From assembly GCA_964016885.1 (NCBI GenBank), contig OZ024742.1, positions 179,428,001-179,492,000 of the forward strand: a stretch of DNA of 64,000 bases. Direction: 5' to 3'. This document shows positions 503-47,867 of this stretch, one piece after another. This DNA is from Eledone cirrhosa (lineage: Eukaryota). Every line of letters begins with the position of its first letter. Position 1 is the first letter of the stretch. The notes under the pieces are model-generated. The model had not been told where the DNA came from. It saw only the letters and a list, made by a program, of their open reading frames with translations, and made no database searches. Position numbers and translations under genes: made by a program.

Positions 503-720
503 TATTTAATTAATTAATTAATTATATTTTTTTATTTTATTTTTTTATTTTTTATTAATTACTTTATTAATTAATTAATTATCTTAGTTCATTTTATTTC
601 AATTTAATTTAATTCAATTTAATTTAATTTAATTTAATTTAATTTAATTTTATTTTATTTTATTTTATTTTATTTTATTTTATTTTATTTTATTTTATTT
701 TATTTTATTTTATTTTAGTT
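503..720 (+). repeat. AT-rich low-complexity tract ending in (AATTT)n then (ATTTT)n
   Basis: From ~601 the pentamer is the reverse complement of the 1-502 unit, then grades into TTTTA. Confidence 0.9.
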
Positions 721-791
721 AAAAAACGAAACCGGGGTAGCTAAAAAAACAAAAGTAAAGAAAACCGGTAACCTAAAAAATCAAACGAAAC

Positions 792-1188
792 GAAATTATC
801 TCCCCTGGGCCGGCTGGAAATTATCTCCCCTTGGCCGGCTGGGTATTATCTCCTCTTTGCCGGCTGGAAATTATCTCCCCTTGGCCGGCTGGATAGTATC
901 TCCCCTTGGCCGGCTGGAAGTTATCTCCCCTTGGCCGGCTGGAAAATATCTCCCCTTGGCCGGCTGGAAAATATCTCCCCTTGGCCGGCTGGAAATTATC
1001 TCCCCTTGGACGGCTGGAAAATATCTCCCCTTGGCCGACTGGAAATTATCTCCCCTTGGCCGGCTGGAAATTATCTCCCCTTGGCCGGCTGGAAATTATC
1101 TCCCTTTGGCCGTCTGGAAATTGTCTCCTCTTGGCCGGCTGGAAATTATCTCGCTTTCGCCGGCTGGAAATTATCTCCATTTGGCCGG
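792..1188 (+). repeat. 25-bp minisatellite (TTATCTCCCCTTGGCCGGCTGGAAA) x~16, left copy
   Basis: Unit starts at 796, 821, 846, 871 ... 1171, an exact 25-bp register. Confidence 0.97.
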
Positions 1189-4100
1189 GGCACCCAAATA
1201 AAAAACGGGGCACCCAAATAAAAAACGGAACCCCCCATAAAAAAACGGGACACCCAAATAAAGAACGGGGCACCCAAATAAAAAACGGGGCACCCAAATA
1301 AAAAACGGTCCCCCCCAAATAAAAAACGGGGCACCCAAATAAAAAAACGGACCCCCCCATAAAAAACTGGAAACCCAAATAAGAAACGGACCGCCCCATA
1401 AAAAACGGTGCACCCAAATAAAAATTGCACCCCCCATAAAAAAGGGGCACCCAAATTAAAAAAAGGACCGCCCCATTAAAAAAACGGGTCACCCAAATAA
1501 AAAACGGACCCCTACATAAAAAAACGGGGCACCTAAATAAAAAACGGACCCCCCCATAAAATAACGGGGCACCCAAATAAAAAACGGGTCACCCAAATAA
1601 AAAGCGGAGCCCCCCCCCCATAAAAAAACGGGGCACCCAAATAAAAAACGGACCCCCATAAAAAACGGAGCACCCAAATAAAAAACGGCGCACCAAAATA
1701 ACAAACGGACCCCCCCCATAAAAAACGGTGCACCCAAATAAAAAATGGACCCCCCCATAAAAAAACGGGGCACGGAAATGAAAAACGGACCCCCCCCCAT
1801 AAAAAAATGGGGCACCCAAATAAAAAACGGCCCCCCTCATAAAAAAAACGGTGCACCCAAATAAAAAATGGACGCCCCATAAAAAAACGGGACACCCAAA
1901 TAAAGAACGGACCCCCCATAAAAAAACGGGGCACCCAAATAAAAACCGGACCCCCCCATAAAAAAACTGGGCACCCAAATAAAGAACGGGGCACCCAAAT
2001 AAAAAACGGCCCCCCTCATAAACAAACGGTGCACCCAAATAAAAAACGCGCCACCCAAATAAAGTACGCGGGACCCAAATAAAAAACGACCCCCCAATAC
2101 AAACACGGAGCACCCAAATAAAAAACGGACGGCCACCATAAAAAAACGGGGCACCCAACTAAAAAACGGAACCCCCCATAAAAAAAGGGGCACCCAAATA
2201 AAAAACGGGGCACCCAAATAAAAAACGGAACCCACCCCATAAAAAAACGGGGAACCCAAATAAAAAATGGGGCACCCAAATAAAAAAACTGGGCACCCAA
2301 ATAAAAAACGGACCCCACCCCATTAAAAAACGGGGCACCCAAATAGAAAACGCCCCCCTCTCATAAAAAACGGTGCACCCAAATAAAAAATGGAGCCCCC
2401 ATAAAAAAACGGGGCACCCAAATAAAAAACGGCGCACCCAAATAACAAACGGACCCCCCCATAAAAAAGGTGCACCCAAATAAAAAACGACCCCCCAATA
2501 CAAACACGGGGCACCCAAATAAAAAACGGACGACCACCATAAAAAAACGGGGCACCCAAATAAAAAACGAAACCCCCCATAAAAAAACGGGGAACCCAAA
2601 TAAAAAACGGGGCACCCACATAAAAAAACGGGGCACACAAATAAAAAACGGACCCCACCCCATAAAAAAACAGGGCACCCAAAAGAACGGTGCACCCAAA
2701 TAAAAAATGGAGCCCCCATAAAAAAACGGGGCACCCAAATAAAAAACGGTGCACCCAAATAAAAAATGGACCCCCCATAAAAAAGGGGCACCGAAATAAA
2801 AAACGGACCCCCCCATAAAAAAACGGAGTACCCAAATAAAAAATGGGGCACCCAAATAAAAAACGGCCCCCCTCATAAAAAAACGGTGCACCCAAATAAA
2901 AAATGGACCCCCCATAAAAAAACGATGCACCCAAATAAAAAACAGCCCCCCCCCATAAAAAAACGGGGCACCCAAATAAAAACCGGACCGCCCCCCCCAT
3001 AAAAAAAACGGGACACCCAAATAAAAAACGGACCCCCCCATAAAAAACGGGACACCCAAATAAAAACCGGACCCCCCATAAAAAAAACAGGGCACCCAAA
3101 TAAAAAACGGGACACCCAAATAAAAAACGCCCCCCCCCTCATAAAAAAACGGTGCACCCAAGTAAAGAACGCGGCACCCAAATAAAGTACGCGGGACCCA
3201 AATAAAAAACGACCCCCCAATAGAAACATGGGGCACCCAAATAAAAAACGGACGACCCCCATAAAAAAACGGGGCACCCAAATAAAAAAAGGACCCCCCC
3301 ATAAAAAAAGGGGCACCCAAATAAAAAACGGGGCCCGAAATAAAAAACGGACCTCCCTATAAAAAACGGTGCACCCAAATAAAAAACGACTCCCCAATGG
3401 TAAAACGGGGCACCCAAGTAAAAAACGGACGACCCCCATAAAAAAACGGGGCACTCAAAATAAAAAACGGACCCCCCCCCCCGCATAAAAAACGCGGCAC
3501 CCAAATAAAAAACGGGGCACCCAAATAAGAAACGGGGCACCCAAATAAAAAACGGAACACCCAAATAAAAAACGACCCCCAATAAAAAGAACGGGGCACC
3601 CATATAAAAAACGACCCCCCAATTAAAAAACGGGGCACCCAAATAAAAAACGGCCCCCTCATAAAAAAACGGTGCACCCTAATAAAAAATGGACCCCCCA
3701 TCAAAAAACGGGGCACCCAAATAAAAAACGGACCCCCCCATAAAAAAACTGGGCACCCAAATAAAAAACGACCCCCGAATAGTAAAACGGGGCACCCAAA
3801 TAAATAGCGGACGACCCCCATAAAAAACGGTGCACCCAAATAAAAAATGGACCTCCCCATAAAAAAACGGGGCACCCAAATAAAAAACGGGGCACCCAAA
3901 TAAAAAACGGACCCCTCCCTTAAAAAACGGGGCACCAAAATTAAAAACGGGGCACCCAAATAAGAAACGGGGCACCCAAATAAAAAACGGAACCACCCAT
4001 AAAAAAACGGGGCACCCAGATAAAAGAACGGGGCACCCAAATAAAAAACGGGCCCCCCATAAAAAAACGGGGCACCCAAATGAAAAACGGACCCCCCATA

Positions 4101-7100
4101 AAAAAACGGGGCACCCAGATAAAAAAACGGGGCACCCAAATAATAAACGGACGACCCCCATAAAAAAACGGGGCACCCAAATAAAAAACGGCCCCCCCAT
4201 AAAGAAACGGGGCACCCAAATAAAAAACGGGGCTCCCAAATAAAAAACGCGGGACCCAAATAAAAAACGGAACCACCCATAAAAAAACGGGGCACCCAAA
4301 TAAAAAACGGACCCCCCATAAAAAAACGGGGCACCCAAATAAAAAAACGGGGCACCCAAATAATAAACGGACGACCCCCATAAAAAAACGGGGCACCCAA
4401 ATAAAAAACGGCCCCCCCATAAAGAAACGGGGCACCCAAATAAAAAACGGGGCACCCAAATAAAAAACGCGGGACCCAAATTAAAAACGACCCCCCAATA
4501 AAAAAACGGGGCACCCAAATAAAAAACGGGGCACCCAAATAAGAAACGGGGCACCCAAATAGAAAACGGAGCCACCCATAAAAAAACGGGGCACCCAAAT
4601 AAAAGAACGGGGCACCCAAATAAAAAACGGACCCCCCATAAAAAAACGGGGCACCCAAATAAAAAAACGGGGCACCCAAATAAAAAACGGAACACCCAAA
4701 TAAAAAACGACCCACCAATAAAAAAAAACGGAGCACCCAAATAAAAAACGGACGACCCCCATAAAAAAACGGGGCACCCAAATAAAAAACGGGGCACCCA
4801 AATAAAAAACGCGGGACCCAAATAAAAAACGACCCCCCAATTAAAAAACGTGACACCAAAATAAAAAACGCGGGACCCAAATAAAAAACGACACCCGAAT
4901 AGTAAAACGGGGCACCCAAATAAAAAGCGGACGACCCCCATAAAAAACGGTGCACCCAAATAAAAAATGGACCTCCCTATAAAAAACGGGGCACCCAAAT
5001 AAAAAACGGGGCACCCAAATAAAAAACGGGGCACCCAAATAAAAAACGGACCCCTCCCTTAAAAAACGGGGCACCAAAATTAAAAACGGGGCACCCAAAT
5101 AAGAAACGGGGCAGCCAAATAAAAAACGGAACCACCCATAAAAAAACGGGGCACCCAAATAAAAGAACGGGGCCCCCCATAAAAAAACGGGGCACCCAAA
5201 TAAAGAAACGGGGCACCCAAATAAAAAACGGACCCATCCCTTAAAAAACGGGGCACCAAAATTAAAAACGGGGCACCCAAATAAGAAACGGGGCACCCAA
5301 ATAAAAAACGGCCCCCCCATAAAGAAACGGGGCACCCAAATAAAAAACGGGGCACCCAAATAAAAAACGCGGGACCCAAATTAAAAACGACCCCCCAATA
5401 AAAAAACGGGGCACCCAAATAAAAAACGGGGCACCCAAATAAAAAACGGGGCACCCAAATAAGAAACGGGGCACCCAAATAGAAAACGGAGCCACCCATA
5501 AAAAAACGGGGCACCCAAATAAAAGAACGGGGCACCCAAATAAAAAACGGACCCCCCATAAAAAAACGGGGCACCCAAATAAAAAAACGGGGCACCCAAA
5601 TAAAAAACGGAACACCCAAATAAAAAACGACCCACCAATAAAAAAAAACGGAGCACCCAAATAAAAAACGGACGACCCCCATAAAAAAACGGGGCACCCA
5701 AATAAAAAACGGGGCACCCAAATAAAAAACGCGGGACCCAAATAAAAAACGACCCCCCAATTAAAAAACGTGACACCAAAATAAAAAACGCGGGACCCAA
5801 ATAAAAAACGACCCCCCAATAAAAAAACGGGGCACCCAAATAAAAAACGGACGACCCCCATAAAAAACGGTGCACCCAAATAAAAAATGGACCTCCCTAT
5901 AAAAAACGGGGCACCCAAATAAAAAACGGGGCACCCAAATAAAAAACGGGGCACCCAAATAAAAAACGGACCCCTCCCTTAAAAAACGGGGCACCAAAAT
6001 TAAAAACGGGGCACCCAAATAAGAAACGGGGCAGCCAAATAAAAAACGGAACCACCCATAAAAAAACGGGGCACCCAAATAAAAGAACGGGGCCCCCCAT
6101 AAAAAAACGGGGCACCCAAATAAAGAAACGGGGCACCCAAATAAAAAACGGACCCATCCCTTAAAAAACGGGGCACCAAAATTAAAAACGGGGCACCCAA
6201 ATAAGAAACGGGGCACTCAAATAAAAAACGGAACCACCCATAAAAAAACGGGGCACCCAAATAAAAGAACGGGCACCCAAATAAAAAACGGGCCCCCCAT
6301 AAAAAAACGGGGCACCCAAATAAAAAACGGGGCACCCAAATAAAAAGCGGAACACCCAAATAAAAAACGACCCACCAATAAAAAAAAACGGGGCACCCAA
6401 ATAAAAAACGGACGACCCCCATAAAAAAACGTTGCACCCAAATAAAAAACGGACCCCCCCCATAAAGATACGGGGCACCCAAATAAAAAACGGGGCACCC
6501 AAATAAAAAACGCTGGACCCAAATAAAAAACGACGCCCAATAGTAAAACGGGGCACCCAAATAAAAACGGACGACCCCCATAAAAAAACAGGGCACTCAA
6601 ATAAAAAACGGACCCCCCCCGCATAAAAAAACGGGGCACCCAAATAAAAAACGGGGCACCCAAATAAGAAACGGGGCACCGAAATAAAAAACGGAACCAC
6701 CCATAAAAAACGGGGCACCCAAATAAAAAAACGGGGCACCCAAATAAAAAACGGAACACCCAAATAAAAAACGACCCCCCAATAAAAAAAACGGGTCACC
6801 CAAATAAAAAACGGACGACCCCCATAAAAAAACGGGGCACCCAAATAAAAAACGGGGCACCCAAATAAAAAACGCGGGACCCAAATAAAAAACGACCCCC
6901 CAATTAAAAAACGGGGCACCCAAATAAAAAACGGCCCCCTCATAAAAAACGGTGCACCCTAATAAAAAAAGGACCCCCCATCAAAAAACAGGGCACCCAA
7001 ATAAAAAACGGACCCCCCCCATAAAAAAACTGGGCACCCAAATAAAAAACGGGGCACCCAAATAAAAAGCAGACGACCCCCATAAAAAACGGTGCACCCA

Positions 7101-10100
7101 AATAAAGAATGGACCTCCCCATAAAAAAACGGGGCACCCAAATAAAAAACGGACCCCTCCCTTAAAAAACGGGGCACCAAAATTAAAAACGAGGCACCCA
7201 AATAAGAAACGGGGCACCCAAATAAAAAACGGAACCACCCATAAAAAAACGGGGCACCCAAATAAAAAACGGGGCACCCAAATAAAAAACGCTGGACCCA
7301 AATAAAAAACGACCCCCAATAGTAAAACGGGGCACCCAAATAAAAACGGACGACCCCCTTAAAAAAACAGGGCACTCAAATAAAAAACGGACCCCCCCCC
7401 CCGCATAAAAAACGGGGCACCCAAATAAGAAACGGGGCACCCAAATAAAAAACGGAAACACCCATAAAAAACGGGGCACCCAAATAAAAAACGGGGCACC
7501 CAAATAAAAAACGCGGGACCCAAATAAAAAACGACCCCCCAATTAAAAAACGGGGCACCCAAATAAAAAACGGCCCCCTCATAAAAAAACGGTGCACCCT
7601 AATAAAAAATGGACCCCCCATCAAAAAACTGGGCACCCAAATAAAAAACGGGGCACCCAAATAAAAAAAGCGGGACCCAAATAAAAAACGACCCCCGAAT
7701 AGTAAAACGGGGCACCCAAATAAAAAGCAGACGACCCCCATAAAAAACGGTGCACCCAAATAAAGAATGGACCTCCCCATAAAAAAACGGGGCACCCAAA
7801 TAAAAAACGGACCCCTCCCTTAAAAAACGGGCACCAAAATTAAAAACGAGGCACCCAAATAAGAAACGGGGCACCCAAATAAAAAACGGAACCACCCATA
7901 AAAAAACGGGGCACCCAAATAAAAGAACGGGGCACCCAAATAAAAAACGGGCCCCCCATAAAAAAACGGGGCACCCAAATAAAAAAACGGGGCACCCAAA
8001 TAAATAACGGACCCCCCATAAAAAAACGGAGCACCCAATTAAAAAACGGACCCCCCCATAAAAAACGGGGCACCCAAATAAAAAACGGGGTACCCAAATA
8101 AAAAACGGACCCCCCCCATAAAAAAACGGGGCACCCAAATAAATAACTGACCCCGCCCATAAAAAAACGGGGCACCCAAATTAAAAATGGACCCCCCCCA
8201 TAAAAAAACGGGGCACAAAAATAAAAAACGGGGTACCCAAATAAAAAAACGGACCCCCCCTAAAAAAACGGGGCACCCATATAAAAAACGGGGTACCCAA
8301 ATAAAAAACGGGGTAACCAAATAAAATACGGACCCCCCCCATTAAAAAACGGGGCACCCAAATAAATAACGGACGCCCCCATAAAAAAAACGGAGCACCC
8401 AATTAAAAAACGGACCGCCCCATAAAAAATGGGGCACCCAAATAAAAAACGGGGTACCCAAATAAAAAACGGACCCCCCCATAAAAAAACGGGGCACCCA
8501 AATAAAAAACGGGGTACCCAAATAAAAAACGGACCCCCCCATAAAAAACGTGTCACCCAAATAAAAAACGGATCCCCCCATAAAAGAACGGGGCACCCAA
8601 ATAAAAAACGAGGTACCCAAATAAAAAACGGACCCCCCCATAAAAAAACGAGGCACCCAAATAAAAAACGGGGTACCCAAATAAAAAACGGACCCCCCCA
8701 TAAAAAAACGGGGCACTCAAATAAAAAACGGAACCCCCATAAAAAAACGGGTCACCCAAATAAAAAACGGGGTACCCAAATAAAAAACGGACCCCCCCCC
8801 ATAAAAAAACGGGGCACACAAATAAAAAACGGGGTACCCAAATAAAAAACGGGATAACCAAATAAAATACGGACCCCCCCATAAAAAACGGGGCACCCAA
8901 ATAAAAAACGGGGTACACAAATAAAAAACGGACCCCCCCCTAAAAAACGGGGCACCCAAATAAAAAACGGGGTACACAAATAAAAAACGGACCCCCCCCA
9001 TAAAAAAACGGGGCACCCAAATAAATAACTGACCCCGCCCATAAAAAAACGGGGCACCCAAATTAAAGATGGACCCCCCCATAAAAAAACGGGCACAAAA
9101 ATAAAAAACGAGGTACCCAAATAAAAAAACGGACCCCCCCTAAAAAAACGGGGCACCCATATAAAAAACGGGGTACCCAAATAAAAAACGGGGTAACCAA
9201 ATAAAAAACGGACCCCCCCCATAAAAAAGCGGGGCACCCAAATAAATAACGGACCCCCCCATAAAAAAACGGAGCACCCAATTAAAAAACGGACCACCCC
9301 ATAAAAAACGGGACACCCAAATAAAAAACGGGGTACCCAAATAAAAAACGGACCCCCCCATAATAAAACGGGGCACACAAATAAAAAACGGGGTACCCAA
9401 ACAAAAAACGGGGTACCCAAATAGAAAACGGACCCCCAATAAAAAAACCGGGTACCCAAATAAAAAACGGACCCCCCCCCCATAAAAAAAGGGGCACCCA
9501 AATATAAAACGGGGTACCCAAATAAAAAACGGGGCACCCAAATAAAAAACGGACCCCCCCATAAAAAAACGGGGCACCCAAATAAAAAACGGGGTACCCA
9601 AATAAAAAACGTGGCACCCAAATAAAGAACGGACCCCCCCCCCATAAAAAAATGGGGCACCCAAATAAAAAACGGGGTACCCAAATAAAAAACGGGGTAA
9701 CCAAATAAAAAACGGACCCCCCATAAAAAAACGGGCCACCCAAATAAATAACGGACCCCCCATAAAAAAACGGAGCACCCAATTAAAAAACGGACACCCC
9801 CATAAAAAACGGGGCACCCAAATAAAAAACGGGGTACCCAAATAAGAAACGGACCCCCCCATAAAAAAACCGGGGCACTCAAATAAAAGACGGGGTACCC
9901 AAATAAAAAACGTGGCACCCAAATAAAAAACGGACCCCCCCATAAAAAAACGGGGCACCCAAATAAAAAACGGGGTACCCAAATAAAAAACGTGGCACCC
10001 AAATAAAAAGCGGACCCCCCTAAAAAAACGGGTCACCCAAATAAAAAACGGGGTACCCAAATAAAAAACGGGGTACCCAAATAAAAAACGGGGTACCCAA

Positions 10101-31100: not shown

Positions 31101-34100
31101 ATAAGGGGTACCCAAATAAAAAACGGGGTAACCAAATAAAAAACGGACCCCCCCCATAAAAAAACGGGGCACCCAAATAAGTAACGGACCCCACCATAAA
31201 AAAACGGAGCACCCAATTAAAAAACGGACCCCCCCCATAAAAAACGGGGCACCCAAATAAAAAACGGGGTACCCAAATAAAAAACGGACCCCCCCATAAA
31301 AAACGGGGCACTCAAATAAAAGACGGGGTACCCAAATAGACAACGTGGCACCCAAATAAAAAATGGACCCCCCCATAAAAAAACGGGGCACCCAAATAAA
31401 AAACGGGGTATCCAAATAAAAAACGTGGCACCCAAATAAAAAACGGACCCCCCCCATAAAAAAACGTATCACCCAAATAAAAAGCGGACCCCCCTAAAAA
31501 AACGGGTCACCCAAATAAAAAACGGGGTACCCAAATAAAAAACGGACCCCCCCCATAATAAAACGGGGCACACAAAGAAAAAACGGGGCACCCAAATAAA
31601 AAACGGACCACCCCATAAAAAAACAGGGCACCCAAATAAAAAACGGGGTACCCAAATAAAGAACGTGGCACCCAAATAAAAAACGGACCCCCCATAAAAA
31701 AACGTGTCACCCAAATAAAAAACGGACCCCCCCCATAAAAGAACGGGGCACCCAAATAAAAAACGGGGTACCCAAATAAAAAACGTACCCCCCGATAAAA
31801 AAACGGGGCACCCAAATAAAAAACGAGGTACCCAAATAAAAAACGGACCCCCCATAGAAAAACCAGGCACCCAAATAAAAAACGGGGTACCCAAATAAAA
31901 AACGGACCCCCCCATAATAAAACGGGGCACACAAATAAAAACCGGACGCCCCCATAAAAGAACGGGGCACCCAAATAAAAAACGGGGTACCCAAATATAA
32001 AACGGCGCACCCAAATAAAAAAACGGGGCACCCAAATAAAAAACGGGGTACCCAAACAAAAAACGGACCCCCCCCATAAAAAAAACGTGTCACCCAAATA
32101 AAAAGCGGACCCCCCCCTAAAAAAACGGGTCACCCAAATAAAAAACGGGGTACCCAAATAAAAAACGGGGTACCCAAATAAAAAACGGACCCCCCCCATA
32201 ATAAAACGGGGCACACAAATAAAAAACGGGCCACCCAAATAAAAAACGGACCACCCCATAAAAAAACAGGGCACCCAAATAAAAAACGGGGTACCCAAAT
32301 AAAAAACGTGGCACCCAAATAAAAAACGGACCCCCCATAAAAAAACGTGTCACCCAAATAAAAAACGGACCCCCCCCCATAAAAGAACGGGGCACCCAAA
32401 TAAAAAACGGGGTACCCAAATAAAAAACGTACCCCCCGATAAAAAAACGGGGCACCCAAATAAAAAACGAGGTACCCAAATAAAAAACGGACCCCCCCAT
32501 AGAAAAACCAGGCACCCAAATAAAAAACGGGGTACCCAAATAAAAAACGGACCCCCCCATAATAAAACGGGGCAAACAAATAAAAACCGGACGCCCCCAT
32601 AAAAGAACGGGGCACCCAAATAAAAAACGGGGTACCCAAATATAAAACGGCGCACCCAAATAAAAAAACGGGGCACCCAAATAAAAAACGGGGTACCCAA
32701 ACAAAAAACGGACCCCCCCCCATAAAAAAAGGGGCACCCAAACAAAAAACGGGGTACCCAAATAAAAAACGGACCCCCCCCCCCTAAAAAAACAGGGCAC
32801 CCAAATAAAAAACGGACCACCCCCATAAAAAAATGGGGCACCCAAATAAATAACTGACCCCGCCCATAAAAAAACGGGGCACCCAAATTAAAAATGGACC
32901 CCCCCCATAAAAAAAACGGGGCACAAAAATAAGAAACGGGGTACCCAAATAAAAAAACGGGGCACCCAAATAAAAAACGGGGTACCCAAATAAAAAACGT
33001 GGCACCCAAATAAAAAACGCCCCCCCCCCATAAAAAACGTGTCACCCAAATAAAAAACGTACCCCCCTCCCATAAAATAACGGGGCACCCAATTAAAAAA
33101 CGGGGTACCCAAATAAAAAACGCCCCCCCCCCCAAAAAAAAAACGGGGCACCCAAATAAAAAACGAGGTACCCAAATAAAAAACGTGGCACCCAAATAAA
33201 AAACGGACCCCCCCATAAAAAAACGTGTCACCCAAATAAAAAACGGACCCCCCCATAAAAGAACGGGGCACCCAAATAAAAAACGGGGTACCCAAATAAA
33301 AAACGGAACCGCCCCCCATAAAATAACGGGGCACCCAAATAAAAAACGAGGTACCCAAATAAAAAACGGACCCCCCCATAAAAAAACGAGGCACCCAAAT
33401 AAAAAACGGGGTACCCAAATAAAAAACGGACCCCCCCCCCATAAAAAAACGGGGCACTCAAATAAAAAACGGAACCCCCCATAAAAAAACGGGTCACCCA
33501 AATAAAAAACGGGGTACACAGATAAAAAACGGACCCCCCCATAAAAAAAACGGGACACCCAAATAAAAAACGGGGTACCCAAATAAAAAACGGACCCCCC
33601 ATAAAAAAACGGGACACCCAAATAAAAAACGTGGTACCCAAATAAAAAACGGACCCCCCCCATAAAAAAACGGGGCACCCAAATAATAGACGGGGTACCC
33701 AAATAAAAAACGTGGCACCCAAATAAAAAACGGACCCCCCCATAAAAAAACGGGACACCCAAATAAAAAACGGGGTACCCAAATAAAAAACGGACCCCCC
33801 CATAATAAAACGGGGCACACAAATAAAAAACGGGGCACCCAAATAAAAAACGGGGTACCCAAATTAAAAACGGACCCCCAATAAAAAAACGGGGCACCCA
33901 AATAAAAAAGGGGCACCCAAATAAAAAACGGACCCCCCATAAAAAAACGGGGCACCCAAATAAAAAACGTGGTACCCAAATAAAAAACGTGGCACCCAAA
34001 TAAAAACGGATCCCCCATAAAAAAACGGGTCACCCAAATAAAAAACGGGGTACACAGATAAAAAACGGACCCCCCCATAAAAAAACGGGACACCCAAATA

Positions 34101-37100
34101 AAAAACGGGGTACCCAAATAAAAAACGGACCCCCCATAAAAAAACGGGGCACCCAAATAAAAAACGTGGTACCCAAATAAAAAACGGACACCCCCCCATA
34201 AAAAAACGGGGCACATAAATAAAAAACGGGGTACCCAAATAAAAAACGGGGTAACCAAATAAAAAACGGACCCTCCCCATAAAAAAACGGGGCACCCAAA
34301 TAATAGACGGGGTACCCAAATAAAAAACGTGGCACCCAAATAAAAAACGGACCCCCCCATAATAAAACGGGGCACACAAATAAAAAACGGGGCACCCAAA
34401 TAAAAAACGGGGTACCCAAATTAAAAACGGACCCCCAATAAAAAAACGGGGCACCCAAATAAAAAAGGGGCACCCAAATAAAAAACGGACCCCCCATAAA
34501 AAAACGGGGCACCCAAATAAAAAACGTGGTACCCAAATAAAAAACGTGGCACCCAAATAAAAAACGGACCCCCCATAAAAAAACGTGTCACCCAAATAAA
34601 AAACGGACCCCCCCCATAAAAGAACGGGGCACCCAAATAAAAAACGGGGTACCCAAATAAAAAACGGACCCCCCCATAAAAAAACGGGGCACCCAAATAA
34701 TAAACGGACCCCCCCCATAAAAAAACGGGGCACCCAAATAAAAAACGGGGTACCCAAATTAAGAACGGACCGCCCCCATAAAAAAACGGGGCACCCAAAT
34801 AAAAAACGGGGTACCCAAATAAAAAACGGGGTAACCAAATAAAAAACGGACCCCCCATAAAAAAACGGGCCACCCAAATAAATAACGGACCCCCCATAAA
34901 AAAACGGAGCACCCAAACAAAAAACGGGGTACCCAAATAAAAAACGGGGTACCCAAATAAAAAACGGACCCCCCCCATAATATAACGGGGCACACAAATA
35001 AAAAACGGGGTACCCAAATAAAAAACGGACCCCCCCATAAAAAACGGGGCACTCAAATAAAAGACGGGGTACCCAAATAGACAACGTGGCACCCAAATAA
35101 AAAACGGACCCCCCCATAAAAAAACGGGGCACCCAAATAAAAAACGGGGTACCCAAATAAAAAACGTGGCACCCAAATAAAAAACGGACCCCCCCCATAA
35201 AAAAACGTGTCACCCAAATAAAAAACGGACCCCCCTAAAAAAAACGGGGCACCCAAATAAAAAACGGGGTACCCAAATAAAAAACGGGGTACCCAAATAA
35301 AAAACGGACCCCCCCCCATAATATAACGGGGCACACAAATAAAAAACGGGGCACCCAAATAACAAACGGACCACCCCATAAAAAAACAGGGCACCCAAAT
35401 AAAAAACGGGGTACCCAAATAAAAAACGTGGCACCCAAATAAAAAACGGACCCCCCATAAAAAAATGTGTCACCCAAATAAAAAACGGACCCCCCATAAA
35501 AGAACGGGGCACCCAAATAAAAAACGGGGTACCGAAATAAAAAACGGACCCCCCGATAAAATAACGGGGCACCCAAATAAAAAACGAGGTACCCAAATAA
35601 AAAACGGACCCCCCCATAGAAAAACCAGGCACCCAAATAAAAAACGGGGTACCCATATAAAAAACGGACCCCCCCATAAAAAAACGGGGCACTCAAATAA
35701 AAAACGGATCCCCCCATAAAAAAACGGGTCATCCAAATAAAAAATGGGGCACCCAAATAAAAAACGGGGTACCCAAATATAAAACGGCGCACCCAAATAA
35801 AAAAACGGGGCACCCAAATAAAAAACGGAGTACCCAAACAGAAAACGGACCCCCCCATAAAAAAACGGGGCACCCAAATAAAAAAGGGGTACCCAAATAA
35901 AAAACGGACCCCCCCCCATAAAAAAACAGGGCACCCAAATAAAAAACGGACCACCCCCATAAAAAAATGGGGCACCCAAATAAATAACTGACCCCGCCCA
36001 TAAAAAAACGGGGCACCCAAATTAAAAATGGACCCCCCATAAAAAAACGGGGCACAAAAATAAAAAACGGGGTACCCAAATAAAAAAACGGACCCCCCCC
36101 CATAAAAAAACGGGGCACCCAAATAAAAAACGGGGTACCCAAATAAAAAACGGACCCCCCCATAAAAAAACGGGGCACCCAAATAATAAACGGACCCCCC
36201 ATAAAAAAACGGGGAACCCAAATAAAAAACGGGGTACCCAAATAAAAAACGGCGCACCCAAATAAAAAACGGGGTACCCAAATAAAAAACGGCGCACCCA
36301 AATAAAAAAACGGGGCACCCAAATAAAAAACGGGGTACCCAAATAAAAAACGGACCCCCCCATAAAAAAACGGGGCACCCAAATAATAAACGGACCCCCC
36401 CATAAAAAAACGGGGCACCCAAATAAAAAACGGGGTACCCAAATAAAAAACGGGGTAACCAAAAAAAAAACGCACCCCCCCATAAAAAAACGGGGCACCC
36501 AAATAAAAAACGGACCCCTCCATAAAAGAACGGGGCACCCAATTAAAAAACGGGGTACCCAAATAAAAAACGGCGCACCCAAATAAAAAACGGGGTACCC
36601 AAATAAAAAACGGCGCACCCAAATAAAAAAACGGGGCACCCAAATAAAAAACGGGGTACCCAAATAAAAAACGGACCCCCCCATAAAAAAACGGGGCACC
36701 CAAATAATAAACGGACCCCCCCATAAAAAAACGGGGCACCCAAATAAAAAACGGGGTACCCAAATAAAAAACGTGGCACCCAAATAAAAAACGCCCCCCC
36801 CCCATAAAAAACGTGTCACCCAAATAAAAAACGTACCCCCCTCCCATAAAATAACGGGGCACCCAATTAAAAAACGGGGTACCCAAATAAAAAACGCCCC
36901 CCCCCCAAAAAAAAAACGGGGCACCCAAATAAAAAACGAGGTACCCAAATAAAAAACGTGGCACCCAAATAAAAAACGGACCCCCCCATAAAAAAACGTG
37001 TCACCCAAATAAAAAACGGACCCCCCCATAAAAGAACGGGGCACCCAAATAAAAAACGGGGTACCCAAATAAAAAACGGAACCGCCCCCCATAAAATAAC

Positions 37101-40100
37101 GGGGCACCCAAATAAAAAACGAGGTACCCAAATAAAAAACGGACCCCCCCATAAAAAAACGAGGCACCCAAATAAAAAACGGGGTACCCAAATAAAAAAC
37201 GGACCCCCCCCATAAAAAAACGGGGCACTCAAATAAAAAACGGAACCCCCCATAAAAAAACGGGTCACCCAAATAAAAAACGGGGTACACAGATAAAAAA
37301 CGGACCCCCCCATAAAAAAACGGGACACCCAAATAAAAAACGGGGTACCCAAATAAAAAACGGACCCCCCATAAAAAAACGGGACACCCAAATAAAAAAC
37401 GTGGTACCCAAATAAAAAACGGACCCCCCCCATAAAAAAACGGGGCACCCAAATAATAGACGGGGTACCCAAATAAAAACGTGGCACCCAAATAAAAAAC
37501 GGACCCCCCCATAAAAAAACGGGACACCCAAATAAAAAACGGGGTACCCAAATAAAAAACGGACCCCCCCATAATAAAACGGGGCACACAAATAAAAAAC
37601 GGGGCACCCAAATAAAAAACGGGGTACCCAAATTAAAAACGGACCCCCAATAAAAAAACGGGGCACCCAAATAAAAAAGGGGCACCCAAATAAAAAACGG
37701 ACCCCCCATAAAAAAACGGGGCACCCAAATAAAAAACGTGGTACCCAAATAAAAAACGTGGCACCCAAATAAAAACGGATCCCCCATAAAAAAACGGGTC
37801 ACCCAAATAAAAAACGGGGTACACAGATAAAAAACGGACCCCCCCATAAAAAAACGGGACACCCAAATAAAAAACGGGGTACCCAAATAAAAAACGGACC
37901 CCCCATAAAAAAACGGGGCACCCAAATAAAAAACGTGGTACCCAAATAAAAAACGGACCCCCCCCCATAAAAAAACGGGGCACATAAATAAAAAACGGGG
38001 TACCCAAATAAAAAACGGGGTAACCAAATAAAAAACGGACCCTCCCCATAAAAAAACGGGGCACCCAAATAATAGACGGGGTACCCAAATAAAAAACGTG
38101 GCACCCAAATAAAAAACGGACCCCCCCATAATAAAACGGGGCACACAAATAAAAAACGGGGCACCCAAATAAAAAACGGGGTACCCAAATTAAAAACGGA
38201 CCCCCAATAAAAAAACGGGGCAACCAAATAAAAAAGGGGCACCCAAATAAAAAACGGACCCCCCATAAAAAAACGGGGCACCCAAATAAAAAACGTGGTA
38301 CCCAAATAAAAAACGTGGCACCCAAATAAAAAACGGACCCCCCATAAAAAAACGTGTCACCCAAATAAAAAACGGACCCCCCCATAAAAGAACGGGGCAC
38401 CCAAATAAAAAACGGGGTACCCAAATAAAAAACGGACCCCCCCATAAAAAAACGGGGCACCCAAATAATAAACGGACCCCCCCCATAAAAAAACGGGGCA
38501 CCCAAATAAAAAACGGGGTACCCAAATTAAGAACGGACCGCCCCCATAAAAAAACGGGGCACCCAAATAAAAAACGGGGTACCCAAATAAAAATCGGGGT
38601 AACCAAATAAAAAACGGACCCCCCATAAAAAAACGGGCCACCCAAATAAATAACGGACCCCCCATAAAAAAACGGAGCACCCAAACAAAAAACGGGGTAC
38701 CCAAATAAAAAACGGGGTACCCAAATAAAAAACGGACCCCCCCCATAATATAACGGGGCACACAAATAAAAAACGGGGTACCCAAATAAAAAACGGACCC
38801 CCCCATAAAAAACGGGGCACTCAAATAAAAGACGGGGTACCCAAATAGACAACGTGGCACCCAAATAAAAAACGGACCCCCCCATAAAAAAACGGGGCAC
38901 CCAAATAAAAAACGGGGTACCCAAATAAAAAACGTGGCACCCAAATAAAAAACGGACCCCCCCATAAAAAAAACGTGTCACCCAAATAAAAAACGGACCC
39001 CCCTAAAAAAAACGGGGCACCCAAATAAAAAACGGGGTACCCAAATAAAAAACGGGGTACCCAAATAAAAAACGGACCCCCCCCCCATAATATAACGGGG
39101 CACACAAATAAAAAACGGGGCACCCAAATAACAAACGGACCACCCCATAAAAAAACAGGGCACCCAAATAAAAAACGGGGTACCCAAATAAAAAACGTGG
39201 CACCCAAATAAAAAACGGACCCCCCATAAAAAAATGTGTCACCCAAATAAAAAACGGACCCCCCATAAAAGAACGGGGCACCCAAATAAAAAACGGGGTA
39301 CCGAAATAAAAAACGGACCCCCCGATAAAATAACGGGGCACCCAAATAAAAAACGAGGTACCCAAATAAAAAACGGACCCCCCCATAGAAAAACCAGGCA
39401 CCCAAATAAAAAACGGGGTACCCATATAAAAAACGGACCCCCCCATAAAAAAACGGGGCACTCAAATAAAAAACGGATCCCCCCATAAAAAAACGGGTCA
39501 TCCAAATAAAAAATGGGGCACCCAAATAAAAAACGGGGTACCCAAATATAAAACGGCGCACCCAAATAAAAAAACGGGGCACCCAAATAAAAAACGGAGT
39601 ACCCAAACAGAAAACGGACCCCCCCCATAAAAAAACGGGGCACCCAAATAAAAAAGGGGTACCCAAATAAAAAACGGACCCCCCCCCCATAAAAAAACAG
39701 GGCACCCAAATAAAAAACGGACCACCCCCATAAAAAAATGGGGCACCCAAATAAATAACTGACCCCGCCCATAAAAAAACGGGGCACCCAAATTAAAAAT
39801 GGACCCCCCATAAAAAAACGGGGCACAAAAATAAAAAACGGGGTACCCAAATAAAAAAACGGACCCCCCCCCATAAAAAAACGGGGCACCCAAATAAAAA
39901 ACGGGGTACCCAAATAAAAAACGGACCCCCCCATAAAAAAACGGGGCACCCAAATAATAAACGGACCCCCCATAAAAAAACGGGGAACCCAAATAAAAAA
40001 CGGGGTACCCAAATAAAAAACGGCGCACCCAAATAAAAAACGGGGTACCCAAATAAAAAACGGCGCACCCAAATAAAAAAACGGGGCACCCAAATAAAAA

Positions 40101-43100
40101 ACGGGGTACCCAAATAAAAAACGGACCCCCCCATAAAAAAACGGGGCACCCAAATAATAAACGGACCCCCCCATAAAAAAACGGGGCACCCAAATAAAAA
40201 ACGGGGTACCCAAATAAAAAACGGGGTAACCAAAAAAAAAACGCACCCCCCCATAAAAAAACGGGGCACCCAAATAAAAAACGGACCCCTCCATAAAAGA
40301 ACGGGGCACCCAATTAAAAAACGGGGTACCCAAATAAAAAACGGCGCACCCAAATAAAAAACGGGGTACCCAAATAAAAAACGGCGCACCCAAATAAAAA
40401 AACGGGGCACCCAAATAAAAAACGGGGTACCCAAATAAAAAACGGACCCCCCCATAAAAAAACGGGGCACCCAAATAATAAACGGACCCCCCCATAAAAA
40501 AACGGGGCACCCAAATAAAAAACGGGGTACCCAAATAAAAAACGGGGTAACCAAATAAAAAACGGACCCCCCCCCATAAAAAAACGGCGCACCCAAATAA
40601 ATAACGGACCCCCCCATAAAAAACGGAGCACCCAATTAAAAAACGGACCCCCGCCATAAAAAACGGGGCACCCAAATAAAAAACGGGGTACCCAAATAAA
40701 AAACGGACCCCCCCCATAAAAAAACGGGGTACCCAAATAAAAAACGGACCCCCCCATAAAAGAACGGGGCGCCCAAATAAAAAACGGGGTACCCAAATAA
40801 AAAACGGCGCACCCAAATAAAAGAACGGGGCACCCAAATAAAAAACGGGGTATCCAAATAAAAAACGGACCCCCTCCATAAAAAAACGGGGCACCCAAAT
40901 AAAAAACGGGGTACCCAAATAAAAAACGGACCCCCCCCATAAAAAAACGGGGCACCCAAATAAAAAACGGACCCCCCCCATAAAAAAAATGGGGCACCCA
41001 AATAAATAACTGACGCCGCCCATAAAAAAACGGGGCACCCAAATTAAAATTGGACCCCCCCCCCATAAAAAAACGGGGCACAAAAATAAAAAACGGGGTA
41101 GCCAAATAAAAAAACGGACCCCCCCTAAAAAACGGGGCACCCAAATAAAAAACGGGGTACCCAAATAAAAAACGGACCCCCCATAAAAAAACGGGGCACC
41201 CAAATAATAAACGGACCCCCCCCCCCCCATGAAAAAACGGGGCAACCAAATAAAAAACGGGGTACCCAAATTAAGAACGGACCGCCCCCATAAAAAAACG
41301 GGGCACCCAAATAAAAAACGGGGTACCCAAATAAAAGACGGGGTAACCAAATAAAAAACGGACCCCCCCATAAAAATAACGGGGCACCCAAATAAATAAC
41401 GGACACCCCCATAAAAAAACGGAGCACCCAATTAAAAAACGGTCCCCCCCCATAAAGAACGGGGCACCCAAATAAAAAACGGAGCCCCCCATAAAAAAAC
41501 GGGGCACCCAAATAAAAAACGGGGTACCCAAATAAAAAACGTGGCAACCAAATAAAAAAGGGGTACCCAAATAAAAAACGGACCCCCCCATAAAAAAACA
41601 GGGCACCCAAATAAAAAACGGACCACCCCCATAAAAAAATGGGGCACCCAAATAAATAACTGACCCCGCCCATAAAAAAAACGGGGCACCCAAATTAAAA
41701 ATGAACCCCCCCATAAAAAACGGGGCACAAAAATAAAAAACGGGGTACCCAAATAAAAAAACGGACCCCCCCCCTAAAAAAACGGGGCACCCAAATAAAA
41801 AACGGGGTACCCAAATAAAAAACGGACCCCCCCCATAAAAAAACGGGGCACCCAAATAATAAACGGACCCCCCATTAAACAACGGGGAACCCAAATAAAA
41901 AACGGGGTACCCAAATTAAGAACGGACCGCCCCCATAAAAAGACGGGGCACCCAAAAAAAAACGGGGTACCCAAATAAAAAACGGGGTAACCAAATAAAA
42001 AACGCACCCCCCCATAAAAAAACGGGGCACCCAAATAATAAACGGACCCCCCCATAAAAAAACGGGGCACCCAAATAAAAAACGGGGTACCCAAATAAAA
42101 AACGGGGTAACCAAATAAAAAAACGGGGCACCCAAATAAAAAACGGGGTACCCAAATAAAAAACGGACCCCCCCATAAAAAAACGGGGCACCCAAATAAT
42201 AAACGGACCCCCCCATAAAAAAACGGGGCACCCAAATAAAAAACGGGGTACCCAAATAAAAAACGGGGTAACCAAATAAAAAACGGACCCCCCCCATAAA
42301 AAAACGGCGCACCCAAATAAATAACGGACCCCCCCCATAAAAAAACGGAGCACCCAATTAAAAAACGGACCCCCGCCATAAAAAACGGGGCACCCAAATA
42401 AAAAACGGGGTACCCAAATAAAAAACGGACCCCCCCCATAAAAAAACGGGGTACCCAAATAAAAAACGGACCCCCCCATAAAAGAACGGGGCGCCCAAAT
42501 AAAAAACGGGGTACCCAAATAAAAAACGGCGCACCCAAATAAAAGAACGGGGCACCCAAATAAAAAACGGGGTACCCAAATAAAAAACGGACCCCCTCCA
42601 TAAAAAAACGGGGCACCCAAATAAAAAACGGACCCCCCCATAAAAAAAATGGGGCACCCAAATAAATAACTGACGCCGCCCATACAAAAACGGGGCACCC
42701 AAATTAAAATTGGACCCCCCCCCATAAAAAAACGGGGCACAAAAATAAAAAACGGGGTAGCCAAATAAAAAAACGGACCCCCCCCTAAAAAACGGGGCAC
42801 CCAAATAAAAAACGGGGTACCCAAATAAAAAACGGACCCCCCAAATAAAAAACGGGGTACCCAAATAAAAAACGTGGCAACCAAATAAAAAACGGACCCC
42901 CCCATAAAAAAACGGGGCACCCAAATAAAAAACGGGGTACCCAAATAAAAAACGTGGCACCCAAATAAAAAACGGACCCCCCCCCCATAAAAAACGGGGC
43001 ACCCAAATAAAAAACGGGGTACCCAAATAAAAAACGGACCCCCCCATAAAATAACGGGGCACCCAAATAAAAAACGGGGTACCCAAATAAAAAACGTGGC

Positions 43101-45580
43101 ACCCAAATAAAAAGCGGACCCCCCCATAAAAAAAACGGGGCACCCAAATAAAACACGGGGTACCCAAATAAAAAACGTAGCACCCAAATAAAAAACGGAC
43201 CCCCCCATAAAAAAACGTGTCACCCAAATAAAAAACGGACCCCCCATAAGAAAACGGGGCACCCAAATAAAAAACGGGGTACCCAAATAAAAAACTGACC
43301 CCCCCCCCATAAAATAACGGGGCACCCAAATAAAAAACGAGGTACCCAAATAAAAAACGGACCCCCCCATAAAAAAACGGGGCACCCAAATAAAAAACGG
43401 GGTACCCAAATAAAAAACGGACCCCCCCATAAAAAAACGGGGCACCCAAATAAAAAACGGGGTACCCAAATAAAAAACGTGACACTCAAATAAAAAACGG
43501 AACCCCCCATAGAAAAACGGGTCACCCAAATAAAAAACGGGGTACCCAAATAAAAAACGGTCACCCTCCATAAAAAAATGGGGCACCCAAATAAAAAACG
43601 GGGTACCCAAATAAAAAAAGGACCCCCCCATAATAAAACGGGGCACACAAATAAAAAACGGACCCCTCCATAAGAGAACGGGGCACCCAATTAAAAACGG
43701 GGTACCCAAATAAAAAACGGCGCACCCAAATAAAAAACGGGGTACCCAAATAAAAAACGGCGCACCCAAATAAAAAAACGGGGCACCCAAATAAAAAACG
43801 GGGTACCCAAATAAAAAACGGACCCCCCCCATAAAAAAACGGGGCACCCAAATAAAAAACGGACCCCCCCATAAAAAAAATGGGGCACCCAAATAAATAA
43901 CTGACGCCGCCCATAAAAAAACGGGGCACCCAAATTAAAATTGGATCCCCCCCATAAAAAAACGGGGCACAAAAATAAAAAACGGGGTAGCCAAATAAAA
44001 AAACGGACCCCCCCTAAAAAACGGGGCACCCAAATAAAAAACGGGGCACCCAAATAAAAAACGGGGCACCCAAATAACAAACGGACCCCCCCCCCCCATA
44101 AAAAAACGGGGCACCCATATAAAAAACGGGGTACCCAAATTAAGAACGGACCGCCCCCATAAAAAAGCGGGGCACCCAAATAAAAAACGGGGCACCCAAA
44201 TAACAAACGGACCCCCCCCCATAAAAATAACGGGGCACCCAAATAAATAACGGACACCCCCATAAAAAAACGGGGCACCCAATTAATAAACGGTCCCCCC
44301 CCATAAAAAACGGGGCACCCAAATAAAAAACGGACCCCCCCATAAAAAAACGCGGCACCCAAATAAAAACGGGGTACCCAAATAAAAAACGTGGCACCCA
44401 AATAAAAAACGGACCCCCCCATAAAAAAACGGGGCACCCAAATAAAAAACGGGGTACCCAAATAAAAAACGTGGCACCCAAATAAATAACGGACCCCCCC
44501 ATAAAAAAACGGGGCACCCAATTAAAAAACGGACCCCCCATAAAAAACGGGGCACCCAAATAAAAAACGGGGTACCCAAATAAAAAACGCCCCCCCCATA
44601 AAATAACGGGGCACCCAAATAAAAAACGGGGTACCCAAATAAAAAACGTGGCACCCAAATAAAAAACGGGGTACCCAAATAAAAAACGTGGCACCCAAAT
44701 AAAAAACGGACCCCCCCCATAAAAAACGGGGCACCCAAATAAAAAACGGGGTACCCAAATAAAAAACGGACCCCCCATAAAATAACGGGGCACCCAAATA
44801 AAAAACGGGGTACCCAAATAAAAAACGAGGTACCCAAATAAAAAAACGGACCCCCCCATAAAAAAACGGGGCACCCAAATAAAAAATGGGGTACCCAAAT
44901 AAAAAACTGACCCCCCCCCCATAAAATAACGGGGCACCCAAATAAAAAACGGGGTACCCAAATAAAAAACGGACCCCCCCATAAAAAAACGGGGCACCCA
45001 AATAAAAAACGGGGCACCCAAATAAAAAACGGACATCCATAAAAAAACGGGGCACCCAAATAAAAAACGGACCCCCCATAAAAAACGGGGCATCCAAATA
45101 AAAAACGGAACCCCCCATAAAAAAACGGGGCACCCAAATAAAAAACGGGGCACCCAAATAAAAAACGAACCCCCCTCATAAAAAAACGGGGCACCCAAAT
45201 AAAAAACGGAGCCCCCCATAAAAAAGGGGCACCCAAATAAAAAATGGGGCACCCAAATAAAAAAACGGGGCACCCAAATAAAAAACGGACCCCCCGTGAA
45301 AAACGGGGCACCCAAATAAAAAACGAGCCCCCCCATAAAAAAACGGGGTACCCAAATAAAAAACGGACCCCCCGTAAAGAAATGGGGCACCCAAATAAAA
45401 AAAGGGGCAGCCAAATAAAAAACGGACCCCCCCATAAAAAAACGGGGCACCCAAATGAAAAACGGGGGACCCAAATTAAAAATGGACCCCCCCCCACAAA
45501 AACGGGTCACCCAAAAATAAAAATGGACCCCCCATAAGAAAACGGGGCACCCAAATATAAAACGGACCCACCCATAAAAA
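1186..45580 (+). repeat. ~44.4-kb satellite of ~20-bp monomers: AAAAAACGGGGCACCCAAAT, AAAAAACGGGGTACCCAAAT and A-tract+CGGA(C)6-10AT
   Basis: Continuous array in one orientation, about 2,200 monomers by length/20. A 60-bp trimer register is visible in stacked lines (e.g. 12661-12840, 15061-15480). Confidence 0.98.
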
Positions 45581-45746
45581 TTTAGTTTAGTTTAGTTTAG
45601 TTTAGTTTAGTTTAGTTTAGTTTAGTTTTGTTTAGTTTAATTTAATTTAATTTAATTTAATTTAATTTATTTAATTTAATTTAATTTAATTTAATTTAAT
45701 TTAATTTAATTTAATTTAATTTAATTTTATTTTATTTTATTTTATT
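45581..45746 (+). repeat. Pentamer tract (TTTAG)n > (TTTAA)n > (TTTTA)n
   Basis: Read directly. The TTTAA>TTTTA gradient matches 601-720. Confidence 0.95.
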
Positions 45747-45791
45747 TAAAAAACGAAACGAAACCGGGGAACCTTAAAAATCTAATGAAAC

Positions 45792-46200
45792 GAAATTATC
45801 TCCCCTTGGCCGGCTGGAAATTATCTCCCCTTGGCCCGCTGAAAATTATCTCCCCATGGCCGGCTGGATATTATCCCTCTTGGCCGGCTGGAAATTATCT
45901 CCCCTTGGCCGGCTGGAAATTATCTCCCCTTGGCCGGCGGGAACTTATCTCCCCTTGGCCGGCTGGATATTATCTCCCCTTAGCTGGCTGGAAATGATCT
46001 CCCCTTGGCCGGCTGGAAATTATCTCCCTTTGCCGGCTGGAAATTATCTCCCCTTGGCCGGCTGGAAATTATCTCCCCTTGGCCGGCTGGAAATTATCTC
46101 CCCTTGGCCGGCTGGAAATTATCTCCCCTTGCTCGGCTGGAAATTATCTCCCCTTGGCCGGCTGGAAATTATCTCCCCTTGGCCGGCTGGAAATTATCTC
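45792..46200 (+). repeat. 25-bp minisatellite x~16, right copy
   Basis: Same unit and orientation as 792-1188, preceded by a homologous AAACGAAACCGGGG...AAAAATC..A.GAAACGAAA linker. Confidence 0.97.
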
Positions 46201-47121: not shown

Positions 47122-47149
47122 TGTTGATCATGTTATTCTGCACTTTTTC

Positions 47150-47213
<64 letters not shown>

Positions 47214-47495
47214 CTGTATTTGCGACCGTTGGTTAGTCAATGATAAACATTGATGGCCAAATGAATTAACTATGGAGATATAAAAGATGCAGAAGCGAAA
47301 ACCAATCAAACAGTGTGTGTTCAGTTATTATTTCTGGCAATATTATTACAACAATATGACCCTCCCCAAGTATAACAACACACACACATATATATATATA
47401 TGTATATATATATAGTTGCTGTAGGGTTGCAGGTAAATGCGCCCGTAGGCGGTATGCCGGTTGATCACTCGATGCTCACACAGAGCAGAGTATAC

Positions 47496-47731
47496 TAGTA
47501 TAAAGAACGAGGAATCAGTAATACATCAAACCACAATTTATTAACATATTACATATGTTTCTCCGTGGATCAGCTTGAGGCAGGATCTCTTACAGATCCA
47601 ACCGGACTCTGCATTCGAAGGCTCTTAAGATATGTCTTCAGATATACCTCGAGCTGATCGATGGAGAAACATATGTAATATGTTAATAAATTGTGGTTTG
47701 ATGCATTAGTAATTCCTCGTTCTTTATACTA
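47496..47731. mobile_element. Foldback element with ~85-bp inverted arms, likely a Penelope pLTR inversion
   Basis: 47496-47580 pairs with 47647-47731. Each arm contains GAAAC-ATAT-GTA followed by AATAAA. Confidence 0.6.
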
Positions 47732-47833
47732 TATATATATAGTTCAAAATGACAAACAAACAGCAAACGCAGGAGTCAATGGTACATAGTGTTATGAGCT
47801 TCACGCTTGGTGAGAATGGCGGAGGCGTATTTA

Positions 47834-47867
47834 CGACGTTTCAGACATAAGTCCTTCATCAGGAGTG
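47834..47867 (-). ncRNA. Minimal Penelope-type hammerhead core, stem I decayed
   Basis: Minus strand reads CACTC-CTGATGA-A-GGAC-TTAT-GTCT-GAAAC-GTCG. Confidence 0.55.

Follow-up and report, generated by a model that had tools for sequence, protein, structure and literature searches.

In the 64-kb window analyzed here, a stretch of 64,000 nucleotides of contig OZ024742.1, a satellite DNA array of 20-bp monomers (20-mers) is flanked on both sides by a composite module made of pentamers, a linker and about 16 copies of a 25-mer. The array is layered, having grown from its middle by repeated segmental duplication. The locus is best read as 1.5 head-to-tail copies of a non-coding unit, which runs from a pentamer microsatellite through a linker and ~16 25-mers to a block of 20-mers of two types, designated A and C. 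This is probably a repeat element that has seeded a satellite in the ordinary way, and we lean, if only slightly, towards a mobile modular carrier as the origin of the tandem copies. Tandem repeats were mapped with Tandem Repeats Finder and by direct reading of the window; the scope throughout is this single window.

The array occupies 44.4 kb on a single strand, and its interior consists of contiguous 20-mers. Tandem Repeats Finder reports 2,209 uninterrupted copies at 1186–45565, and no inverted block, minus-strand monomer or foreign insert was found over 1186–45570. As a long head-to-tail array with higher-order duplications, it has the properties of satellite DNA. Three monomer types were counted among the 2,209: A (1001), B (472), which is one base from A, and C (736). 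B is found in 470 of the 1835 monomers of the core, but in only one of 344 in the left edge layer (1186–8050) and one of 30 in the right edge layer (44960–45570). Exactly duplicated words of six monomers, counted in 23 bins of 2 kb, are at 0% in the first and last bins and reach up to 100% in the core. The four longest duplications, of 3935, 2583, 1875 and 1251 bp, are 99.0–99.4% identical, with 13, 6, 10 and 2 substitutions, respectively. Duplications are found, among other places, at 28429–33512 and 32949–40646. Edges that are poor in B and free of duplications, combined with core duplications of 99% identity, indicate growth from the middle of one ancestral block. The edit distance is also highest at both edges (1.28 and 1.24 vs 0.68–1.11 elsewhere). 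From the order of the monomers, an ancestral unit of the form C-A(A)n can be deduced, since C never stands next to C (0 observed vs 245 expected), and the monomer after it is A in 727 of 736 cases.

No single regular higher-order period describes the array; the best lag ranges from 46 to 188 monomers and varies along its length. Five of 18 rare monomers are common to the right edge and the first 2.3 kb (core windows average 1.7), but this sharing was not used as evidence, simple variants being more abundant in the left edge. A signature of CpG decay was rejected: at the CpG, C>T and G>A are found in 7 and 5 haplotypes, compared with 12 and 14 for the nearby C>A and G>T. With no excess of CpG transitions, the monomers carry no sequence sign of long methylation. 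Strand asymmetry is extreme over 1186–45570, with an AT skew of about +0.7 and ten A-rich bases alternating with ten G/C-rich ones. The minus strand of the array has 464 G-quadruplex-like motifs if loops of up to 20 nt are allowed, vs only 3 with loops of up to 12. Strong hairpins were rejected, at -8 to -10 kcal/mol per 121 nt, calculated without a shuffle control.

The two modules, at 601–1188 and 45579–46202, have the same order of parts and the same orientation, a correspondence far beyond chance. Tandem Repeats Finder places pentamers at 522–717 and 15.9 copies of the 25-mer at 792–1188 on the left side, and pentamers at 45579–45749 and 16.5 copies at 45792–46201 on the right. All 29 matches to the 25-mer core (at most four mismatches) are confined to these two blocks, on the plus strand, and each of two linker motifs is present twice on the plus strand and zero times on the minus strand. 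These strand-resolved counts, with the Tandem Repeats Finder map, bear out an earlier note on this DNA, which had described a composite module standing twice around a 44-kb satellite in the same orientation, with ~16 25-mers each; the near-equal copy numbers that it saw are 15 and 16 full copies. Its limits for the modules need revision. The right module, which it placed at ~45620–46200, is present but starts at ~45580, with a (TTTAG)9 block absent from the left module. The left pentamers, which it had begin at ~601, have no boundary there; pentamer blocks extend from position 1 of the window. The features are as follows.

1–503, no strand assigned: pentamer tract, open leftward; (AAATT)64, (CAATT)8, (ACATT)9, (AATTA)18.
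504–600, no strand assigned: transition zone of degenerate A/T sequence, containing two short (TTAA)n runs.
601–717, plus strand: left module pentamers, TTTAA (7) then TTTTA (13).
718–791, plus strand: left linker, 74 bp, with an internal duplication of ~27 bp.
792–1188, plus strand: left 25-mer block, 15 full copies and a partial one, diverging by 5.3% from the consensus, with 4 of the 15 perfect.
1179–1199, plus strand: 25-mer/20-mer junction, a CGG overlap and a hairpin with a 6-bp stem, after a non-consensus terminal CA.
1186–8050, plus strand: left edge layer of the array, built of A and C monomers (B 1/344), few duplications.
8050–44960, plus strand: core layer of the array, built of A, B and C monomers (B 470/1835), with nested tandem duplications of 0.5–3.9 kb and 97–99.4% identity.
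44960–45570, plus strand: right edge layer of the array, built of A and C monomers (B 1/30), many unique variants, no duplicated 6-monomer word.
45579–45749, plus strand: right module pentamers, TTTAG (9), TTTAA (about 17), TTTTA (4).
45748–45791, plus strand: right linker, 44 bp, a single unit.
45792–46202, plus strand: right 25-mer block, 16 full copies and 13 nt, diverging by 4.0% from the consensus, with 7 of the 16 perfect; terminal CA as on the left.
46200–47155, no strand assigned: flanking palindromic element E1, with arms at 46200–46316 and 46923–47036 (91%).

The pentamer variants TTAGT, TTAAT, TTATT, TTAAA, TTCAA and TTACA (in 1–717 and 45579–45749) are all connected by single plus-strand substitutions, and their blocks are homogeneous, the pattern that slippage would give. 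The tract at 1–503 is either the inverted counterpart of the TTTAA block of the module or a one-base drift of that block on the same strand. If inverted, (AAATT)n at 1–503 could be the head of another module in a head-to-head (foldback) arrangement, and the locus would form one arm of a large palindrome. Read on the opposite strand, (AATTT)n does become (AAATT)n, and pentamer orientation switches over the degenerate zone at 504–600, within which no GC-containing hairpin or subterminal repeat was found. However, a single substitution also turns TTAAA into TTAAT without a change of strand, the TTCAA variant is found on the same strand on both sides, and no inverted linker, 25-mer or 20-mer exists anywhere in the window. 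We regard a foldback as highly improbable.

Judged by their sequences, the two modules are old relatives and not a recent duplicate. Compared over 601–1179 and 45579–46202, with flanks included, they have about 86% mean column identity. The linkers, of 74 and 44 bp, differ by a 27-bp indel and by six mismatches in 44 aligned bases. Variants shared by the 25-mer blocks had been noticed earlier, and three do exist, among 15 distinct substitutions on the left and 13 on the right, but this is the level expected by chance (P=0.51 under a uniform draw). The order of the variants is not colinear either, as the best offset shares two of them (shuffle p=0.79), and the shared variants were not accepted as a sign of recent duplication. 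Monomers of the left block are 90.0% identical to one another and those of the right block 92.3%, compared with 91.1% for monomers of different blocks. This similarity of the between-block and within-block values points to independent decay, by 4–5% each, from a once uniform master. If the host is an octopus and evolves at the substitution rate given in PMC13282606, 0.0036 per million years, the modules would have diverged very roughly 11–15 million years ago.

A history in three steps could account for these features. Initially, two tandem copies of the unit would have been laid down from a homogeneous master, the carrier being most likely a non-autonomous rolling-circle element (Helentron/HINE-like). 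The 20-mer block of unit 1 then expanded from its middle, as the layering shows, with segments of 0.5–4 kb duplicated by unequal exchange or template switching. In the course of this expansion the one-base variant B arose and spread through the core, displacing the old A and C monomers to both edges. Finally, unit 2 would have lost everything past its last 25-mer as a Penelope-like palindromic element inserted with deletion, or alternatively through a later microhomology deletion (2–3 shared bases). The product of these steps behaves as a compound satellite, with no coding or RNA function indicated. A super-repeat of ~45 kb with a cut second unit, as suggested earlier, fits in outline, except that only the first unit is 45 kb long, its size being due to the local expansion of one block.

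The likeness to known carriers lies in the order of parts. In the oyster Cg_HINE elements, as described in PMC7492417, a microsatellite is followed by a variable segment of 10–500 bp and then by either one array or two successive ones, fixed in orientation. At this locus, both copies have a microsatellite, a variable spacer (74 and 44 bp) and then a tandem array, and unit 1 has consecutive arrays in fixed orientation, 25-mer then 20-mer, with a single 25/20 junction. Moreover, rolling-circle replication without a terminator is described as yielding truncated copies in tandem, as well as arrays that have parts of the element on just one side (PMC12628747, PMC8268682). A number of points weigh against this reading. 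Subterminal inverted repeats (subTIRs) and a 3' palindrome are the defining HINE features according to PMC4067079. A 5' subTIR and inverted repeat with a matching 3' subTIR (11–15 bp) were not found, as an inverted 11-mer pair (one mismatch, at least two G/C), between 490–791 and 45440–45600; the search gave only low-complexity matches into E1, and the actual left end may be beyond the window. No 3' palindrome, as a perfect stem of at least 5 bp with two G/C, was found in 45480–45600 or 46180–46260, nor did the end of the array or the heads of the modules show any hairpin containing GC. The last 20-mer directly adjoins the right-module pentamers with zero intervening sequence, leaving that junction without any terminal sequence. 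Only two module copies are present, so that mobility is putative, the left end lies outside the window, and the monomers of 20–25 bp compare with 140–180 bp for the oyster HINE (PMC7492417). The same CA ends both 25-mer blocks, which the favored model takes as coincidence or microhomology. Substitutions alone (6.0% at the left edge, 4.3% in the core and 2.7% at the right edge, n=15) support older edges only on the left. As the HINE termini were not found, we liken the locus to a HINE-seeded satellite and do not file it as a HINE.

The missing termini would be expected if there had never been a mobile carrier. The locus would then be a heterochromatic compound satellite, pericentromeric or subtelomeric, whose junction segment was duplicated locally by unequal recombination, and the unit would recur as a super-repeat further left, beyond the window. 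The pentamer tract, still open at position 1, and the layered growth of the array are both in keeping with this. Furthermore, the left linker resembles degenerate 20-mers in comparison with the B monomer (shuffle p=0.015, one of six comparisons; p=0.2 for the right linker), and the blocks may thus derive from one another in place. A relation between the 25-mer and 20-mer sequences was rejected (p 0.69–0.85 in six comparisons). Against a local origin, the 25-mer variants should be colinear after a single duplication, unless this came just after homogenization, and no colinear ones are seen. In addition, the fixed order of microsatellite, spacer, array and array agrees with the carriers described in PMC7492417, and the monomers lack the excess of CpG transitions. 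We consider an origin without a carrier unlikely.

The right 25-mer block breaks off at 46202, inside a monomer. Beyond this point, over 46202–64000 on both strands, there is no A, B or C monomer with up to four mismatches and no 25-mer with up to six. Since the second unit never resumes, the junction either involved a deletion or is a true cassette end. In the adjoining E1, homology to two further members of the family carries the right arm on for ~110 bp, as far as (TA)n; the left arm is without that part. The relatives of E1, at 48072–49144 and 56654–57095, each begin at a (TA)n tract and have unequal inverted arms. Inverted, unequal, truncated copies beside (TA)n are known for Penelope-like elements (PMC8557442), and E1 shares this arrangement. 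Its putative assignment as Penelope-like is one of architecture only: none of the six open reading frames from 46296–49367 matches a Pfam family for a reverse transcriptase or GIY-YIG remnant, and no hammerhead ribozyme is among the 65 Rfam matches in 45500–64000. The proposal that a Penelope insertion at 46200 cut the second unit thus holds for the truncation, but not for a clean insertion, with no remnant of the unit in 46202–64000, nor for a Penelope domain.

If 46202 is instead a true cassette end, the modules could be the terminal direct repeats of a cassette resembling either a long terminal repeat (LTR) element, such as a terminal-repeat retrotransposon in miniature (TRIM), or KolobokP. 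Such repeats would end in CA at 1179 and 46202, a tRNA-Cys primer site would open the interior and would have been amplified into the 20-mer satellite, and the whole would have inserted into the left arm of E1. Two direct terminal repeats are present, as in LTR elements and TRIMs, and their 25-mer copy numbers are nearly equal. An A at position 13, which produces the shared CA end, is found only in the last 25-mer of each block (2 of 33 monomers). Compared by eye with the human tRNA-Cys 3' fragment printed in PMC10663186, 1182–1198 agrees with its complement at 13 of 17 positions, and the left CA, two bases and then this stretch have the geometry of an LTR end followed by a primer site. The left arm of E1 is short by about 110 bp, and direct-repeat elements with multimers occur in molluscs (PMC6934838, PMC9587614).

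Several observations weigh against such a cassette. The right terminal A is also part of the E1 inverted arm, with a chance of about 1 in 3 (A fraction 0.34). A tRNA match of this quality arises by chance in 2–26% of cases over about 50 tRNA ends, with the free TGG set aside, and it has mismatches at primer positions 4–5; the 25/20 junction itself is accounted for by the CGG overlap of the two repeats. Unequal arms are also seen in the element E2 and are usual for Penelope-like elements (PMC8557442). The right module has no TG and starts with TTTAG after an A run, while the start of the left module is not visible; the longest purine run in 45540–45581, where a polypurine tract would lie, is 5 nt, and there is no recognizable target site duplication of 4–6 bp, the left boundary being undefined. 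No tRNA family is among the three Rfam matches in 500–1500, and no tRNA gene was found. For KolobokP, which has terminal inverted repeats (TIRs) of 11–18 bp and RR...YY ends, no inverted pair was found between the linker and 1150–1260. The module heads match only low-complexity sites in E1, and there is no TIR in the modules. The interior, being 2,209 contiguous 20-mers, has no coding remnant, and a KolobokP transposase (DDD/E) and His-Me nuclease are absent from it. The suggestion of an LTR-like or otherwise mobile cassette retains the shared terminal CA and the tRNA-Cys match, both weak, and is without the TG start, the polypurine tract and a visible target site duplication; we regard it as distinctly improbable. 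In its most specific form, a tRNA-Cys-primed non-autonomous element with satellite-only terminal repeats would have turned its primer stretch into the 20-mer, now a layered, centromere-type cephalopod array with both founder ends still attached, and this is likewise highly improbable.

An assembly artefact, either a mis-join at 45570 or 46200 or a false duplication inflating the array, is the least probable of the explanations considered. Several adjacent duplications are more than 99% identical, and the flank also has a near-perfect tandem duplication of 591 bp. However, the modules differ at many sites, unique and decayed monomers of the A/C type border both junctions, and the duplications differ by substitutions (2–13 in each of the four longest), beyond homopolymer length.

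Coding function was rejected for the locus, as the open frames follow the repeat composition and gave one sub-threshold Pfam match only. Structured RNA was likewise rejected, with three weak Rfam matches in 500–1500. The translation of the right 25-mer block had 0 of 1123 candidates at E≤0.001, only lengths of 82–263 being covered. A minus-strand translation over the 25/20 junction had seven weak matches (E 1e-7 to 6e-4), which were taken as unrelated period-20 repeats and not used. Exact patterns of 31 nt for the 25-mer and 29 nt for the 20-mer gave 0 and 0 matches in bacterial and archaeal genomes, in collections with few or no animal genomes. Window positions 700–1300 had no match in plasmids and phages, and none of these blanks says anything on copy number in the host. 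Six motifs were not found in the full texts of papers, supplements being outside the search.

The right flank, which looks like octopus DNA by the putative resemblance of its SINEs and other repeats, is gene-free and contains (AT)n and (AC)n tracts, copies resembling short interspersed nuclear elements (SINEs), the end of a long interspersed nuclear element (LINE), palindromic elements and transposase-like fragments. An inverted-repeat element with a GAAG-containing center was seen by eye at 47500–47730 and is missing from the self-BLAST list. At 49145–49900, adjoining the right arm of E2, are fragments that by eye resemble a mariner transposase, with a weak DDE_3 match (E=0.051) and no PDB match. 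The decayed LINE end at 53230–54810 carries a zf-RVT domain (E=2e-8) and has nine relatives, the best 76% identical; we take it to be of the L1/Tx1 type. Four SINE-like copies, at 54842–55034, 59028–59224, 63053–63250 and 63492–63592, are 85–95% identical, and may resemble the common octopus SINE; the parts of the MetaSINE paper covered yielded no sequence that matches. The 591-bp tandem duplication lies at 55113–56347 and is 99.7% identical over 639 bp, reflecting either a recent duplication or an assembly artefact. Broken minus-strand frames of 207 and 110 aa at 60446–61615 look like a DNA transposase by eye and have no Pfam match. At 63783–63973 there is a near-perfect palindrome with 95-bp arms and a 1-nt center.

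Under the favored reading, a modular unit laid down in tandem by a HINE-like carrier, the locus is a single-locus record of a satellite growing from a modular repeat, in which the founder ends, the old edges and the young core can all be read. The process itself has already been described in oysters and flies. An LTR-like cassette, if true, would make the locus matter much more. No title on cephalopod satellites or centromeres was among the papers listed, in a search that had supplements, repeat databases and subscription papers outside it. An annotation of Octopus vulgaris (PMC13282606) gives satellites as 3.12% in 80 families, Helitrons as 1.02% and Penelope-like elements as 6.83%, and satellite sequences are not printed in the parts of it examined. 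The repeat family may already be named elsewhere. If the host is an octopus, these monomers would be concrete probes for a centromere test.

Among known systems, the Cg_HINE elements of the Pacific oyster, especially Cg_HINE_10_13 and Cg_HINE_11_12 (PMC7492417), are like the locus in having a microsatellite, a variable spacer and two consecutive arrays in fixed orientation; they are also non-coding, lie in T-rich surroundings and have arrays able to become satellites. The locus differs in having no detected subTIR, inverted repeat or 3' palindrome, in its shorter monomers, and in its 2,209 monomers, vs at most 29 in the account of PMC7492417 and 89 element-associated ones in that of PMC8268682. 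The DINE-1/HINE family (PMC4067079) is similarly modular: it has a microsatellite and central repeats, and its inner array is able to turn into a satellite, a comparison of architecture only. Its defining termini and its TT insertion site are not recognized at the locus. In Drosophila, DINE-TR1 is reportedly a satellite that emerged from the inner array of such an element. Tandem truncated Helitron arrays, according to the model of Xiong et al. as given in PMC12628747 and PMC8268682, are also made of head-to-tail copies without a 3' terminator, whereas the locus shows only 1.5 copies and no recognized Helitron 5' end.

Two systems with direct terminal repeats can also be compared. TRIMs and tandem-array TRIMs (biv-TRIM, PMC6934838) have two direct repeats around an interior, and the locus has a possible CA end and a stretch like a primer-binding site; unlike them, its terminal repeats are wholly micro- or minisatellite, it has no polypurine tract or TG start, and its interior is 44 kb instead of about 80 bp. 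KolobokP (PMC9587614) has direct terminal repeats of 450 or 660 bp, vs about 590–620 bp here, forms multimers and is found in molluscan hosts; the main text of that paper has 0 mentions of octopus or cephalopods. In contrast to KolobokP, the locus has no 11–18 bp TIRs within its modules, no recognized RR...YY ends, and no transposase or His-Me nuclease. With the centromeric satellite arrays of human and plant telomere-to-telomere assemblies, which show layered expansion, the locus shares a young duplicated core and older flanking monomers; it is unlike them in its size of 44 kb, its 20-bp monomer and the absence of any single regular higher-order period.

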